Of a stretch of 29,059 bases of DNA, positions 5,194-29,059 are shown in pieces. The notes under the pieces were generated by a model. It saw only the letters and a list, made by a program, of their open reading frames with translations, made no database searches and was not told the DNA's origin. The translations under genes were made by a program, and so were the position numbers. Source of the DNA: a virus; IMG/VR virus record IMGVR_UViG_3300027413_000025. One strand, written 5' to 3'. Each line of letters opens with the position of its first letter. Position 1 is the stretch's first letter.

Positions 5194-5883
5194 ATGAATC
5201 AAATATTATACAAAGCGGCGCCCGTTGGCGAATTAATTGACGCGGACGAAAAGGCCGGAATTATAAAAGGTTACGGAAGTTATTTCGGGAATAAAGACTC
5301 GGACAATGACGTGATCATGAAAGGAGCGTATAAAAAAACAATTGCAGAAAACGGCGATCGAGTTAAATATTTGTATCAACATGACATGAATCAACCAATT
5401 GGAAAAATGACGGAGTTATACGAGGATGACAAAGGTTTGGTTTTTGTTGCAGAAATTGCAAAAACACAATTGGGAAAAGACGTTGTTGAATTAATGAAGT
5501 CCGGAGTTATTACAGAAAATTCGGTTGGTATAATGCCAATTCAAAAAACAAACAAAGACGGATTTCGTGAGATCAACGAAGTTAAACTTTACGAAATTAG
5601 CGCCGTTACATTGGCCGCAAATGATCAAGCCAAGATTTTGGATGTCAAGGGAAATATTGACGTTGAAAAACTTGCAAAAAGATATGATAATTTATCAAAA
5701 CTAATAAGAAAAGGAGAAATTTCCGACGACATGGGATTCGCCATTGAAGCGGAAATATTAAAGTTAAAATCATTATTTATTGAATTCACAAAGCCGACGG
5801 AAATCGTCACTTTGCCGAATGTTGAAATAAAAAACAATGATTCGGAAGTGTTAAACTATTTATTAAATTCATTAAAAAATTAA
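5194..5883 (+). CDS. Prohead (capsid maturation) protease, HK97 family (S78/U35)
   Basis: GYGSYFGNKDSDNDVIMKGAYKKTI...VKYLYQHD...PIGK pattern, located immediately upstream of the major capsid gene. Confidence 0.85.
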   Translation: MNQILYKAAPVGELIDADEKAGIIKGYGSYFGNKDSDNDVIMKGAYKKTIAENGDRVKYLYQHDMNQPIGKMTELYEDDKGLVFVAEIAKTQLGKDVVELMKSGVITENSVGIMPIQKTNKDGFREINEVKLYEISAVTLAANDQAKILDVKGNIDVEKLAKRYDNLSKLIRKGEISDDMGFAIEAEILKLKSLFIEFTKPTEIVTLPNVEIKNNDSEVLNYLLNSLKN

Positions 5884-5887
5884 AAAA

Positions 5888-7072
5888 ATGGACGATAAAA
5901 TGAAAGACCAATTGGATTCAATAAGCAAATCCATTGATCAAAAAATTGAAACGAGTAATATTGAGATCGTTGAAACTTTAGTTGCAAAAACAAATGACGT
6001 TGTTGCGACAGAGGTTAAATCAATTAGCGACAATATTAATCAAAGACTTGATGCGATAGAAGTATCAAACAAAAAGAATTTCAGTTCGCCAAAGAGAGCA
6101 ACGTTTAAAAATGCTTTAAAAGAAGCATTGGACAACGGCGCAATTGAGGGACTGCAAAAGGGATTGGATTCCAACGCGAGATTTGTTGTAAAAGCAAACA
6201 TGACGACGGGAGCGGATTTTACCGGAGAAGTAATTCCGGCGAGTAGAGTTGACGGATATAAATTTGATCCAACAAGTCCAACGCACATAAGACAATTATT
6301 GGCACAAGGAAGCACACAAAGCGACGTTGTTCGTTACGTTAAAGAATCGTCGTATTCAAACGGATCAGCAGCAAAAGCAGAGGGAGCGGAATTGAATCAA
6401 AGTGACTTTGATATGACGGCGGTTGACGCAAACGTTAGAAAAATCGGGACTTATTTCCGAATTTCTGAAGAAATGTTAGCAGATACTCCACAATTGACAA
6501 GTTATATTTCAGCAAGAGCGCCGGAAAAACTTATGCAAGTTGAGGACGATCAAATATTGAACGGAAACGGATCATCGCCGAATTTATCCGGAATTATTAC
6601 GGACGCGGCGTCATTTAGTGCCGGAGATTTAGCAAATTCTGTTGAAAGTGCAAATGAATTTGATGTTATTGTTGCAGCGTTAAACCAATTAGCAGCGTCT
6701 AATTATGAAGCCGATACAATTTTATTAAATCCAAGCGATTTTCACAAAATACTATTGTTAAAAGATTCGTCAAACAACTATTTAAAAGACCAAGTTTATA
6801 ACGGCATTTCGCCGGTATTTATGGGCGTTAAAGTTGTTCTTAATACTGCAATCTCGGCCGGAGATTTCCTAATCGGAAACTTTGGTGTTGGGACTCAATT
6901 GTGGGTTAGAGACGGAATCAACGTTGAGTTCTTTAAAGAGGACGGAATCAACGTCAGAGAGGGATTTGTAACAATCCGCGTTTCTGAAAGAGTTGCATTG
7001 ACCAACTATTTACCGAACGCATTCGTTGCCGGAGATTTCACAACTGCAAAAGCAGCATTGGAGACTCCATAA
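5888..7072 (+). CDS. Major capsid protein, HK97 fold, with an N-terminal coiled-coil delta/scaffold region
   Basis: 394 aa and follows the protease. LNGNGSSPNLSGII motif, with a C-terminal region typical of the Phage_capsid family. Confidence 0.9.
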   Translation: MDDKMKDQLDSISKSIDQKIETSNIEIVETLVAKTNDVVATEVKSISDNINQRLDAIEVSNKKNFSSPKRATFKNALKEALDNGAIEGLQKGLDSNARFVVKANMTTGADFTGEVIPASRVDGYKFDPTSPTHIRQLLAQGSTQSDVVRYVKESSYSNGSAAKAEGAELNQSDFDMTAVDANVRKIGTYFRISEEMLADTPQLTSYISARAPEKLMQVEDDQILNGNGSSPNLSGIITDAASFSAGDLANSVESANEFDVIVAALNQLAASNYEADTILLNPSDFHKILLLKDSSNNYLKDQVYNGISPVFMGVKVVLNTAISAGDFLIGNFGVGTQLWVRDGINVEFFKEDGINVREGFVTIRVSERVALTNYLPNAFVAGDFTTAKAALETP

Positions 7073-7096
7073 ATTCGGGATCAAAACCATGAAATG

Positions 7097-7129
7097 GGGA
7101 TCGCATTAATTTGCGGTCCCTTTTTTTTT
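7097..7129 (+). terminator. Rho-independent terminator after the capsid gene
   Basis: GGGATCGCA (7097-7105) pairs with TGCGGTCCC (7112-7120): 9 bp including one G-U, a 6-nt loop, then T9. Confidence 0.8.
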
Positions 7130-7155
7130 GATTAAATAAAAATTCATTATCTTTG
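7127..7155 (+). promoter_or_regulatory. Promoter: TTTG (7127-7130), 17-nt spacer, TATCTTTG (7148-7155)
   Basis: Bacteroidota -33/-7 architecture. No ORF follows it. Confidence 0.55.
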
Positions 7156-7159
7156 CATT

Positions 7160-7280
7160 GAACGTGTTGATCGGATCCGTTGTTGGAGTTTCCGGTCTTA
7201 GTTTTCCCAACTCAAGCCACGTTCACTTGAAAATCCTGGTTGGCCATTAATTTGGCTTTAATCGGGATTTTCTTCTTTTA
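7160..7280 (+). ncRNA. Candidate structured non-coding RNA 1 (about 120 nt, unclassified)
   Basis: No credible ORF. Helix TGAACGTG 7159-7166 / CACGTTCA 7218-7225 encloses GTTGG 7182-7186 / CCAAC 7207-7211. A second helix, GAAAATCC 7229-7236 / GGATTTTC 7265-7272, encloses GCCA 7243-7246 / TGGC 7253-7256 and is followed by a U-rich tail. Confidence 0.45.
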
Positions 7281-7316
7281 TTCCCTTTTAATTATAACTA
7301 TTCACTATTTATTTTT

Positions 7317-7328
7317 TTTGTATATTTG
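7317..7328 (+). promoter_or_regulatory. Promoter word TTTG-TATATTTG with no ORF downstream
   Basis: Exact member of the recurring TTTGTATnTTTG motif. Confidence 0.5.
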
Positions 7329-7332
7329 CAGA

Positions 7333-7552
7333 GTTCCGCCGAGTGGCTTGTCTTGTCAAAGAGGGCATTTCCGGCACGAAAATCCTCTTGTTTTCCGGCG
7401 GAGTAAAGTTTTGGAGTTAGAATCGTTAATGGCTTTGCAATGCAAATTGTACGGCCGCGATATTGTTTTGGGAGCGCCTTAAAATGTTCTCGAAACTTGT
7501 CAAATGCGATTTTGACTCCATTACGATTTTATAATGAGATCGGTTTTTTTTT
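7333..7552 (+). ncRNA. Candidate structured non-coding RNA 2 (about 220 nt, unclassified)
   Basis: Nested helices: TCCGCCG 7335-7341 / CGGCGGA 7396-7402; AAGAGG 7359-7364 / CCTCTT 7384-7389; a 14-bp helix 7412-7425 / 7507-7520 (2 G-U); TTAA(T)GGC 7426-7433 / GCCTTAA 7476-7482; hairpin TTTGC-AAT-GCAAA 7434-7446. It ends in a T-run at 7544-7552. By eye it is more GC-rich than its flanks. Confidence 0.5.
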
Positions 7553-7650
7553 CTACAAAACAACACGTTGATTTCCAGGAGGTTAAATAAAAATTGAAAA
7601 AATATTTTAAAAAAAACTAAAAAAATTCTTTTAAAAGTCAATAATGTTCT

Positions 7651-7658
7651 TATCTTTG
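7651..7658 (+). promoter_or_regulatory. -7 box TATCTTTG, with the leader AAAATTTTTATC abutting the ATG at 7693
   Basis: Motif match plus the conserved leader. Confidence 0.5.
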
Positions 7659-7692
7659 CATCAAACAAACATTAATAATTAAAATTTTTATC

Positions 7693-8100
7693 ATGCAAAC
7701 ATTAAACGAAACAACTCAAAAAGAAATCAGAACATTCAAAAAGAACGTATTATCAAATCTTGAAAGATCAATGATCGGAGATTTAAAAACAATCATTGAC
7801 GTTGTGAGATACAACGACACAAATCATTCATTGATCAACGCGTCAAATGTATCAACAAACTTTAACAGATTAGAAAATTTCATTTGCGGAATTTATGACG
7901 GGTTTTTATACAACAAAGGAATCAACAAGGAAATCAAAACAATCGAAGATTTTTTCAGATCAAACGAAACGGACGAAAAAGTTATGTTGTATCGAGTATT
8001 TTCAAGCGTTGAAAACCTTGTTAAAACAATAAACAATCGTTTGGATGAAATGCCAGGTTTTGAGATTTCAGAAAACGACGCACATGCGCAAAACTTTTAA
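7693..8100 (+). CDS. Hypothetical protein (135 aa), accessory-island gene
   Basis: Clean ORF with its own promoter, leader and terminator. No recognisable motif. Confidence 0.7.
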   Translation: MQTLNETTQKEIRTFKKNVLSNLERSMIGDLKTIIDVVRYNDTNHSLINASNVSTNFNRLENFICGIYDGFLYNKGINKEIKTIEDFFRSNETDEKVMLYRVFSSVENLVKTINNRLDEMPGFEISENDAHAQNF

Positions 8101-8622: not shown

Positions 8623-8644
8623 TTTTATTTATGTTGTTTGATCG

Positions 8645-8674
8645 AGCGTCCGTTTTTATGGGCGCTTTTTTTTT
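8645..8674 (+). terminator. Rho-independent terminator
   Basis: AGCGTCC (8645-8651) pairs with GGGCGCT (8660-8666, one G-U), followed by a T-run. Confidence 0.75.
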
Positions 8675-8678
8675 GTTG

Positions 8679-8686
8679 TACCTTTG
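8679..8686 (+). promoter_or_regulatory. -7 box TACCTTTG, 4 nt upstream of the ATG at 8691 (possible leaderless mRNA)
   Basis: TAnnTTTG match with the same geometry as 101..108 and the terS ATG. Confidence 0.4.
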
Positions 8687-12177: not shown

Positions 12178-13530
12178 ATGTCAATTAGAAACGACGCCTT
12201 TTTTTATTTTAAACCGAGCGCATACAAACAAGGAAAAATTTATACACAAATCCCAATTTCGGGACAAGCGGATTTGGACGTTGAACGCGAAACCTATAAA
12301 AATAGACTTGCAAAAGGCCAGGTTTTACAAAACATGGATCAAAGTGTTCCGACATTATCTTATATTAAAAAGGAGCGCAATTTATACGGAAAACCACAAT
12401 CATGTCCCGTTTTAAATATTGAGGAACAAAAATATAATTATCAATATAATTCACATGATCAAAATACCGGGACTTATTCTTATAGTGGAACGAACGTTGA
12501 TTTTAATGCTAAAAGATTTATTGACGGATCTAAAATTGCAACCTTTGTCGAAAACTTAAATTCAAGTTCACATGTTAGATCGGATTTTGAATTTTTATCG
12601 GAGCAATTTTCAACGAGTTTCACATATTCGGGATATGTTAAAAATCATAAAACATCAAAATTCTTTTATGTTAATATTACAACACAAAGCGAAGATGCCG
12701 ATTTTCTTTTGAATATTGATTCATGTAATGTTGAATCAGTAAAACATTCAAGCGGTATAAAAGCGGGTGCAAGAATTTACACAATAGACGAGGAAAAAAC
12801 GCAAGACGTAAAGCAAGACGGCGTGACTCCAAATCCATGGATGCGTTTTGAATGTACAATTGAATTTCCGAACAATCAATATTCGTTTAATCCGATTCCG
12901 GTCCGAATTTTAATGAAACCAAAATTTGACAATCTGAATCAACTTGAAGATTTAACTCCTGGCGCAACGTGTTTTTATAATGGGTTTCAATGGGAAAACG
13001 ATTTGTTTGCGTCAAGTTTAATTAGATCAAATAATTCGGCCGGTTTTAGAGGTCAAGACAATATTTATAAAGAATTTTCCGGCGTAGAATTAAGGCCACA
13101 AACAACAATTTTTGCGGATTTTAAGCCGTCAAGATTAATCGATAGCAAACAAGGATCATATTTCAGCATAGCAAATTCAAACGGACAAGAACGATTTGAT
13201 ATTTGGGTTTCCTGGAAATATCGAGTTTATTTCCGAAATATAAGAAACGGAAATCAATACTATTCAATTTATGGAGATTTTGATCCGGACCAAAGATTGC
13301 GTTGCGTCTTTACAATGGAATCCGGACGTTGTGTTTTATACATGAACGGCCGCAAGATTTACGAAAAAAATTCATGCGAGATTCCGCTCGGAACAAGACA
13401 TGTTTCATTTCAAAATCACACCTTAACAAATAGGGAAACAATATTTAAAGGCGATGTTCATGAATTTTTTGCTTTGCCGTATGTTGTGACAGAAAATCAA
13501 GCGATTAATTTAACACAATACAATCCTTAA
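12178..13530 (+). CDS. Hypothetical 450-aa protein, possibly a virion/receptor-binding protein (the C-terminal jelly-roll/LamG-like assignment is a guess)
   Basis: Long clean ORF with its own promoter between the lysis genes and the tail tube gene. No firm motif. Confidence 0.6.
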   Translation: MSIRNDAFFYFKPSAYKQGKIYTQIPISGQADLDVERETYKNRLAKGQVLQNMDQSVPTLSYIKKERNLYGKPQSCPVLNIEEQKYNYQYNSHDQNTGTYSYSGTNVDFNAKRFIDGSKIATFVENLNSSSHVRSDFEFLSEQFSTSFTYSGYVKNHKTSKFFYVNITTQSEDADFLLNIDSCNVESVKHSSGIKAGARIYTIDEEKTQDVKQDGVTPNPWMRFECTIEFPNNQYSFNPIPVRILMKPKFDNLNQLEDLTPGATCFYNGFQWENDLFASSLIRSNNSAGFRGQDNIYKEFSGVELRPQTTIFADFKPSRLIDSKQGSYFSIANSNGQERFDIWVSWKYRVYFRNIRNGNQYYSIYGDFDPDQRLRCVFTMESGRCVLYMNGRKIYEKNSCEIPLGTRHVSFQNHTLTNRETIFKGDVHEFFALPYVVTENQAINLTQYNP

Positions 13531-14459: not shown

Positions 14460-14791
14460 ATTTCCTAAAATTAACCGAATATTATATCGGATTAATCGGT
14501 TTAAAACCGGACGATTTTTGGCGGCAAACATGGAGGGAAAACGCTTTAATGGCCGAGGCATATCATAACAAAACGAATCTTGAATGGGAACAAACAAGAT
14601 ATATTTCCGTCATGATTTATAATTCACAATGCAAGAAAAAATCGCAGATGTTAAAACCGCATCAATTGTTTAAATTACCTATTGACGAAAAGCGAAAACA
14701 AAAAAGATTGATCCCACAATCGACAGAAAAAAGAAAAAACGAATTTTTAAAAAAATACAATTCAATGACAAAGAAAACGACGCTAAAATAA
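14429..14791 (+). CDS. Frameshift extension of the tail chaperone (gpGT-like fusion; full product is 14085..14435 joined to 14435..14791)
   Basis: The -1 frame reads ...GKSEAVKSKINFLKLTEYYIGLIGLKPDDFWRQTWRENALMAEAYH... with no stop. The track ORF 14549..14791 is the same frame. Confidence 0.6.
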   Translation, partial: GKSEAVKSKINFLKLTEYYIGLIGLKPDDFWRQTWRENALMAEAYHNKTNLEWEQTRYISVMIYNSQCKKKSQMLKPHQLFKLPIDEKRKQKRLIPQSTEKRKNEFLKKYNSMTKKTTLK

Positions 14792-14807
14792 AAGCGTCTT
14801 TTTTTTT
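14779..14807 (+). terminator. Terminator-like hairpin overlapping the stop of the frameshift product
   Basis: GACGCT (14779-14784) pairs with AGCGTC (14793-14798), followed by T9. Confidence 0.6.
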
Positions 14808-14816
14808 GTATTTTTG
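14805..14816 (+). promoter_or_regulatory. Promoter word TTTG-TATTTTTG upstream of the tape measure gene
   Basis: Exact recurring motif. Confidence 0.5.
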
Positions 14817-28912: not shown

Positions 28913-29032
28913 ATGAATAAGATAATAAACATGATCCTAAAGTTAAAGTCCATTAAACCGCAATCAAAACGCTTGAAACTAAAGATCCAAAGACTACAAC
29001 AACAACTTAATTCCGAAACCGCTAATCAATAG
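28913..29032 (+). CDS. Micro-ORF, 39 aa, basic, crossing the circular junction (ends at position 72 in start-of-window coordinates)
   Basis: Hand translation: MNKIINMILKLKSIKPQSKRLKLKIQRLQQQLNSETANQ. Its stop sits in the terminator stem. Confidence 0.3.
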   Translation: MNKIINMILKLKSIKPQSKRLKLKIQRLQQQLNSETANQ

Positions 29033-29059
29033 CGGTTTTTTTTTGTCATTTATTTTTTT
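28961..29059. repeat. Second copy of the 99-bp terminal repeat
   Basis: Identical to 1..99. Confidence 0.95.

Follow-up and report, generated by a model that had tools for sequence, protein, structure and literature searches.

A predicted small-RNA gene with a fast-changing pseudoknot domain behind the capsid gene of an ocean and estuary phage

Unit 2 is a stretch without open reading frames (ORFs) behind the capsid gene of the phage genome IMGVR_UViG_3300027413_000025, whose whole analyzed length of 29,059 nucleotides (nt) is called the window here. Positions 7127 to 7282 read as an independent small-RNA gene, with a putative promoter fused to the terminator of the capsid gene, and the 67-nt 5′ domain of the predicted transcript (domain 1, 7159 to 7225) would form an H-type pseudoknot in which stems S1 and S2 cross, closed by an 8-bp helix, P1. 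Domain 1 is a local hot spot of change, in which the helices, the overall length, and the lengths of loops L1 and L3 are kept. Our combined reading, to which we assign a probability of about one-half, is that unit 2 encodes a structured small RNA that is accessory, acts in trans, and is under diversifying selection. Our confidence in the gene and its fold is high, and our confidence in the mode of action is low.

Results

A predicted RNA gene in the gap after the capsid gene

Unit 2 lies in a 620-nt ORF-less gap between the HK97-type major capsid gene (5888 to 7072) on the left and a 135-amino-acid (aa) ORF (7693 to 8100) on the right, and this gap is without gene calls in every public contig that carries it. 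Three promoter-like TAnnTTTG boxes of Bacteroidota type stand in the gap (at 7148, 7321, and 7651). We compared four alleles of the unit: A, the window; B, locus L001; C, locus L232; and D, shared by loci L225 and L231. In all four the order is capsid terminator, promoter, unit 2, promoter, and unit 1, a second ORF-less unit. The end of the T run of the capsid terminator doubles as the −33 TTTG of the unit 2 promoter (Table 1), and the same arrangement of terminator and then promoter recurs at 55 to 108, 8644 to 8686, and 14779 to 14816. The TAnnTTTG box with CAT is common to other intergenic promoters of the phage, and a −7 box stands at the equivalent position in alleles B, C, and D; the promoter is assigned by sequence match, and the transcription start is a prediction. 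With a start at roughly 7159 to 7162, the unit 2 transcript would be about 115 to 125 nt long.

On the plus strand, the RNA from 7156 to 7300 folds with a free energy of −44.7 kcal/mol (z = −5.65), and 0 of 200 shuffles folded as well; the minus strand of the unit reaches −32.9 kcal/mol (z = −2.55). The plus strand folds better because several of the pairs are G-U, which can form on that strand only. There is no ATG on the plus strand of unit 2, and single-nt indels separate its alleles; therefore, the unit is noncoding. A preliminary description of the window, made from sequence, had proposed an ORF-less, promoter-driven, two-domain structured RNA here, which the fold energy, the lack of an ATG, and the helices kept among alleles all bear out; its coordinates for the promoter, the P1 helix, a 33-mer at 7179 to 7211, and the helix of the terminator hairpin P3 were likewise correct. 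Inverted repeats, and the 17-nt direct repeats that bracket the block holding both RNA units, might also be read as signs of a DNA-level element (such as a boundary for recombination or for a cassette, or an inverted repeat bound by a protein), and a short protein-coding gene can be considered as well. We regard either as highly improbable, given helices that G-U pairs make strand specific, compensatory changes that include G-U intermediates, the lack of a plus-strand ATG, indels that shift the frame, and candidate ORFs that match no family. A scan for tRNA and transfer-messenger RNA found none, and there is no tandem repeat within 7148 to 7290.

The 3′ part of the unit is P3, at whose base GAAAATCC (7229 to 7236) pairs with GGATTTTC (7265 to 7272) and encloses GCCA/TGGC. 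A linker of 3 to 4 nt separates this terminator from the domain closed by P1. P3 is nearly identical in alleles A and C, and in allele B two basal pairs are compensated (G-C to A-U and A-U to G-C). Allele D has another hairpin in its place, AGGGCC...GGCCCU, followed by a U-rich stretch. We also observed that the loop CATTAATTTG is common to the capsid terminator (7104 to 7113) and the unit 2 terminator (7245 to 7254), and that very similar terminator loops occur in distant relatives (L054, 5462 to 5550; L004, 6384 to 6470). This recurrence suggests a family-specific terminator module or a binding site.

The 5′ domain is predicted to be a pseudoknot and covaries in every helix

Nested folding of each allele recovered P1 and S1 every time. 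Both strands of S2 were left unpaired in the nested folds of B, C, and D and were partly drawn into small alternative hairpins in A. The domain is 67, 68, 67, and 68 nt long in alleles A, B, C, and D, respectively, with a spacer of 1 to 2 nt between P1 and S1. About two-thirds of the RNA is base-paired, no long single-stranded seed region is present, and only about five unpaired nucleotides are conserved over the four alleles. The preliminary description had seen a hairpin in this domain: its P1 helix stands, but a simple hairpin does not, since S1, which it missed, makes a pseudoknot with the GTTGG/CCAAC stem. That stem is real, having undergone independent compensatory changes in B and C, and it is the S2 of the pseudoknot.

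All pairs are standard in all alleles except the terminal pair of P1, and every helix contains compensatory changes; among them are some with G-U intermediates. Within P1, these affect pair 6 in allele C and pairs 5, 6, and 7 in allele D. Pair 7 of S1 is A-U in A, G-U in B, and C-G in C; in D, five of the six aligned S1 pairs are a different standard pair (two G-C/C-G swaps, two changes from G-C to A-U, and one from U-G to G-C), and the seventh is gapped. S2 has undergone independent double changes from G-C to A-U, at 7186/7207 in B and at 7182/7211 in C, and has three changed pairs in D. Helices thus kept with compensatory changes in three further alleles are the outcome of the check for conservation and covariation in related phages that the preliminary description had proposed.

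Between alleles A and B, 18 substitutions, 9 of them in paired positions, broke no pair (P = 2.5 × 10−5 for random placement; P = 3.7 × 10−4 given nine in stems), and three pairs are changed on both sides (7186/7207, 7229/7272, and 7230/7271). For A, B, and C together, paired cells make up 99.1%, and four pairs (two of S2 and one each of P1 and S1) are changed on both sides; these values were reached by 4 of 500 shuffles, and slid controls were 26 to 56% paired. Allele D has no BLAST similarity to A inside unit 2, with flanks about 85% identical, and was aligned segment by segment in a script, its helices having been misplaced in a MAFFT alignment. It keeps the order of the helices, the 6 nt of L1, and the 9 nt of L3. 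A descriptor of the architecture was matched by 0 of 5000 shuffles of D and by 5 of 20000 random genomic 89-mers, and at 1323 promoter boxes in related loci it matched at the known alleles only.

Table 1. Features of unit 2 and its surroundings (window coordinates)
Feature	Position	Strand	Remarks
Capsid-gene terminator	7096..7129	+	Hairpin 7096-7121, then a run of nine T; terminator scan; kept in 4/4 alleles
Unit 2 promoter, Bacteroidota type (putative)	7127..7155	+	−33 TTTG at 7127-7130, 17-nt spacer, −7 TATCTTTG at 7148-7155
P1, 5′ strand TGAACGTG	7159..7166	+	Pairs with 7218-7225; in the minimum-energy fold, 4/4 alleles
S1, 5′ strand GATCGGA	7169..7175	+	Pairs with 7191-7197; in the minimum-energy fold, 4/4 alleles
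Loop L1	7176..7181	+	6 nt in 4/4 alleles; sequence variable
S2, 5′ strand GTTGG	7182..7186	+	Pairs with 7207-7211; crosses S1
Loop L2	7187..7190	+	4-6 nt; first base A in 4/4 alleles
S1, 3′ strand TCCGGTC	7191..7197	+	Minimum-energy folds and compensatory changes
Loop L3	7198..7206	+	9 nt in 4/4 alleles; pattern nnnnUUnnC
S2, 3′ strand CCAAC	7207..7211	+	Compensatory changes
Junction J	7212..7217	+	6-8 nt; first base U in 4/4 alleles
P1, 3′ strand CACGTTCA	7218..7225	+	Minimum-energy folds and compensatory changes
P3 hairpin, 18 bp	7229..7272	+	7229-7246 with 7253-7272; 2-nt bulge; loop TTAATT; intrinsic-terminator stem
U-rich tail TTCTTTTATT	7273..7282	+	Read from sequence; presumed RNA 3′ end; U-rich in B and C too
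Unit 1	7321..7555	+	ORF-less; own promoter, structured RNA, terminator; inherited with unit 2 in 4/4 alleles
17-nt imperfect direct repeat	7147..7163 (left), 7650-7666 (right)	+	Promoter/start region; brackets the 503-nt block of both RNA units

The 5′ domain changes faster than silent sites

The A and B genomes are 94.8% identical overall and differ at 6.8% of four-fold degenerate sites. Among the 68 columns of domain 1, alleles A and B differ at 13, A and C at 21, and B and C at 22 (19 to 32%), with P values from 8 × 10−4 to 6 × 10−10 against a rate of 7%. At the unpaired positions of the domain, 36 to 46% differ (10 to 13 of 28 per allele pair). The neighbors of the domain are far closer between A and C (capsid DNA, 95.9% identity; P3, 97.9%; first 90 nt of unit 1, 98.9%), and the 5′ part of unit 1 differs by 1 to 2%. 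The fast change may be due to diversifying selection or to repeated exchange with unsampled alleles.

This concentration of variable positions in the loops, along with the unit's own promoter and terminator, would also suit a base-pairing regulatory small RNA (sRNA) whose variable L1, L3, and J find partners in unit 1 or in mRNAs of the host or the phage, so that changes in the loops set its target specificity. The segment 7173 to 7185 is in fact perfectly complementary over 13 nt to positions 590 to 602, within a 392-aa ORF (439 to 1617). However, the 590-to-602 site changes in allele B without a matching change in the RNA, and the complement is therefore probably due to chance. No loop has a unit 1 complement that is consistent over the four alleles, the best duplexes with the rest of the phage genome are within random expectation, and an RNA paired over two-thirds of its length offers no long seed. 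We consider base pairing an unlikely mode of action.

The CRISPR-repeat resemblance is limited to one allele

The preliminary description had likened the 33-mer at 7179 to 7211 to a direct repeat of type VI-B (Cas13b) CRISPR systems and had proposed an RNA anti-CRISPR decoy. Under this proposal, the segment would be a Racr, or solitary repeat unit, that mimics the repeat and soaks up host Cas protein. The repeats of type VI-B are 36 nt long and conserved, with a poly-U loop and pairing 5′-GUUG and CAAC-3′ ends (bioRxiv 10.1101/092577). The window segment similarly begins with GTTG, ends with CCAAC, and holds U runs; a 36-nt repeat of Flavobacteriaceae also ends in CCAAC; and the promoter-proximal position is typical of solitary repeat units, which usually lie just downstream of a promoter (PMC10651486).

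The resemblance does not extend beyond allele A, in which alone the GUUG/CAAC ends are complementary: the outer 5′ GTTG is GTAG in allele B, and the stem reads AUUGG/CCAAU in C and AUGGU/ACCAU in D. The segment is 33 nt long in A and C and 34 nt in B, not 36 nt, and in isolation it folds weakly, with a 20-nt open loop (−2.8 kcal/mol versus −11.3 kcal/mol for the PspCas13b repeat). Moreover, the S1 helix, with which it interleaves, has one strand outside the 33-mer, which is therefore not a folding unit. The segment agrees with the PspCas13b repeat at 23 of 37 aligned columns (62%), a level not above that of controls with shuffled interiors, 10.8% of which were as good; the published SRUFinder screen required at least 90% identity and coverage to a CRISPR repeat and contains no type VI examples (PMC10651486). 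Within the window, the end signature GTTG-N22-30-CAAC is present 13 times. When 185,579 species genomes were scanned for near-exact matches to the conserved core (TTCCGGTCTTANTTTTCNCAAC), no repeat array turned up, and the one chance match fell within GC-rich coding sequence of an alphaproteobacterium. Conservation would be expected of a segment that mimics a conserved repeat; this one is the fastest-changing part of the locus, which argues against mimicry. We put the chance of repeat mimicry close to negligible, and the decoy idea is not supported. Two further patterns in the preliminary description did not hold up: the other alleles do not keep the internal duplication AGTTTCC/AGTTTTCC, and the words common to units 1 and 2 are at chance level (23 to 34% of shuffles as good).

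The unit matches no known RNA family

Comparison with Rfam, another step proposed at the outset, gave no match at gathering and E-value thresholds for the window, 20 relatives, or the new alleles. The best subthreshold score in unit 2 was 15.7 bits (threshold, 55), and no family recurred across alleles. A phage RNA with a compact, pseudoknotted fold whose size is fixed could be cargo with catalytic activity, for example, a new self-cleaving ribozyme, several small ribozyme classes being pseudoknotted and associated with phages. Given that only about five unpaired nucleotides are conserved over the four alleles and that no Rfam ribozyme family matches, we consider catalysis very unlikely.

The succession of promoter, P1-closed pseudoknot, short linker, and terminator is also the layout of a transcriptional riboswitch, and all genes share one strand, along which several more terminators follow downstream. 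Unit 2 might accordingly be a cis-acting leader, either a riboswitch-like aptamer with its terminator or a processive antitermination element, that tunes read-through to unit 1, the 135-aa ORF, and genes further downstream. Against such a role, there is no conserved antiterminator (the sole candidate, CCAAC with GUUGG of P3, is lost in B according to the alignment), the very few conserved unpaired nucleotides are unlike a ligand pocket, unit 1 and the ORF each have a promoter of their own, and no riboswitch family matches. We find a cis-acting leader doubtful.

Unit 2 is confined to one narrow phage lineage

A capsid protein search of IMG/VR yielded 195 relatives, of which the best 80 loci were kept. 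Among these best 80 of 195, unit 2 was present in L001 only (allele B; capsid identity, 96%), and 78 relatives with capsid identities of 67 to 78% were without it; the slot after the capsid terminator in those relatives holds about 190 nt or small ORFs. Alleles C and D were found by a search of a large protein collection. The capsid of the allele C locus falls in the 90% cluster of the window capsid, and that of the allele D loci is 89% identical to it. By exact-protein look-ups, allele A is identical in at least 10 contigs from ENA, Logan, and JGI. Allele B is clonal too, with carriers including GenBank MK892646.1 and Tara Oceans run assemblies. Ocean and estuary samples with this phage are numerous, and they include Tara Oceans runs along with others from ENA, Logan, and JGI.

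Wider searches agreed with this narrow range. We found no DNA relative among GenBank phages. A scan of viral contigs for the P1 pattern returned chance palindromes only; a scan of public collections for the P3 pattern returned allele B only; a metagenome pattern scan returned alleles A and B plus six chance matches; and a scan for the unit 1 pattern returned allele B and one chance match. When a covariance model of alleles A and B was run on the 80 relatives, it matched only terminators with the CAUUAAUUUG loop, not domain 1.

Two side observations concern the same slot. At least 10 short contigs, each from an independent sample (L207 to L209, L233 to L235, and L242 to L246; corresponding to window positions of about 5710 to 7100), end about 6 to 38 nt past the capsid stop, and several of them begin about 165 to 190 nt upstream of the capsid start. 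These capsid-only contigs could be capsid mRNA assembled from metatranscriptomes, or they could reflect assembly breaks at the variable unit. In L053 (1330 to 1730), and also in L040, L042, L052, and L071, a different ORF-poor stretch of about 270 nt lies behind a promoter in the same post-capsid slot. The stretch in these L053-type relatives has no Rfam match and may be another noncoding cargo.

Genome setting, unit 1, and the 503-nt block

The ends of the window repeat each other (55 to 79 = 29015 to 29039); therefore, the phage genome, of about 28.96 kb, is complete and either circular or terminally redundant. All long ORFs are on the plus strand, and the gene set is ordinary, with a terminase, a portal, and an HK97-type capsid. 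The capsid gene and the head-tail adaptor gene are separated by a variable slot, which houses a 503-nt accessory block that comprises both RNA units. Elsewhere in the genome, the part of a 450-aa ORF (12178 to 13530) at 12442 to 13041 has 67 to 80% identity between the A and B genomes, compared with about 95% in other places; the product of this ORF may be a host-recognition protein.

In contrast to the fast-changing unit 2, the first 90 nt of unit 1 are 98 to 99% identical among alleles A to C, and the unit 1 helix GAGGG...AAUCCUCU is kept in the distant allele D (L225, 4437 to 4608). In loci L035 and L037, the 135-aa ORF directly follows the capsid terminator and the block is absent. Recombination between the promoter copies at its borders may therefore add or remove the block. 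In allele B, the bases after both −7 boxes have changed in parallel (CAT to TCG at 7156 to 7158; CATC to TCAA at 7659 to 7662), which hints at exchange between promoter copies.

Because L035 and L037 carry the 135-aa ORF without the RNAs, a link between unit 2 and this ORF was rejected. A type III antitoxin RNA was rejected as well: there is no tandem repeat, and the neighboring ORF matches no toxin family and can be present where the RNA is absent. The neighboring small ORFs gave no informative family match.

Discussion

We propose that the unit 2 RNA would act in trans through its shape, without any CRISPR-repeat mimicry, and that it probably binds a protein or other partner that is itself changing. 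Its most likely role would be in phage-host interaction, for example, in counter-defense or takeover, rather than in virion assembly; the role is taken to be accessory because close relatives are without the unit. Several points weigh against this proposal. We have identified no target or binding partner, and the start and end of the transcript, as well as its expression, are read from sequence. The fast change could be explained by recombination with unsampled alleles instead of selection. There is also some chance, though a small one, of a role in cis, for instance, one in which unit 2 attenuates the read-through that reaches unit 1 and later genes. Finally, the comparison covers four alleles, three of them closely related, and the tolerance ranges of the architecture descriptor were chosen after allele D had been seen.

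A more pointed version, which we offer tentatively and think improbable as it stands, is that the 67-nt domain serves in an arms race as an RNA module that confers specificity, and that it binds and blocks a fast-changing host factor, such as an immune protein. It would explain why the surface nucleotides change several-fold faster than silent sites while the fold stays constant. If true, it would amount to RNA counter-defense independent of CRISPR-repeat mimicry. A variant of the idea would make the domain a new class of aptamer or ribozyme.

Phage small RNAs have been little studied beyond a few model phages, and there is almost nothing for marine Bacteroidota phages. A molecule that is directly in conflict with a changing partner would be expected to change fast and keep its shape. 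If unit 2 is such a molecule, it offers a handle on an RNA-based phage-host interaction of an undescribed kind; otherwise, it nonetheless represents a clean, new family of structured RNA. The analysis also disposes of the CRISPR mimicry claim, which was tempting but lacked support.

Comparison with known systems helps to place the unit. Like Racrs, unit 2 would be a small phage-encoded noncoding RNA with its own promoter just upstream, in an accessory region (PMC10651486); Racrs, however, are at least 90% like a host repeat, whereas unit 2 matches no repeat found, and the segment in question lies within the predicted pseudoknot. With type VI-B direct repeats, the window allele alone shares pairing 5′ GTTG and 3′ CAAC ends and U-rich stretches, but those repeats are 36 nt long, conserved in sequence, and fold by themselves into an extended hairpin, whereas the unit 2 segment is 33 to 34 nt long, variable, and weakly folded.

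In having loops that vary among close relatives on kept stems, the RNA resembles the antisense immunity and copy-control RNAs (P1/P7 c4, P4 CI, and ColE1 RNA I). These are small, highly structured, constitutively expressed RNAs with a co-varying target in the same element; for unit 2, unlike the c4-type RNAs, no co-varying target was found, and the C4 family of Rfam did not match. Type III antitoxin RNAs (ToxI-like) and their phage-borne mimics are similarly pseudoknotted, specific to a partner, followed by a terminator, and engaged in phage-host conflict. Type III antitoxin RNAs consist of tandem repeats of about 34 to 45 nt beside a toxin gene, whereas unit 2 is single copy.

A compact promoter-proximal pseudoknot followed by an intrinsic terminator also recalls the preQ1, SAM-II, and fluoride riboswitches, from which unit 2 differs in having no conserved ligand pocket or antiterminator, no regulated ORF within the unit, and no Rfam match. 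The pRNA of the phi29 family is likewise a phage RNA of about 120 nt near the head genes, with a kept structure and a diverged sequence. pRNA is essential and occurs throughout its phage family, whose packaging motor is different; unit 2, in contrast, is absent from close relatives, and its phage has an ordinary terminase, portal, and HK97-type capsid. Small structured RNAs encoded by phages are thus already known; the fold of unit 2 matches no described family, and what is unusual about it is fast change that preserves the fold.

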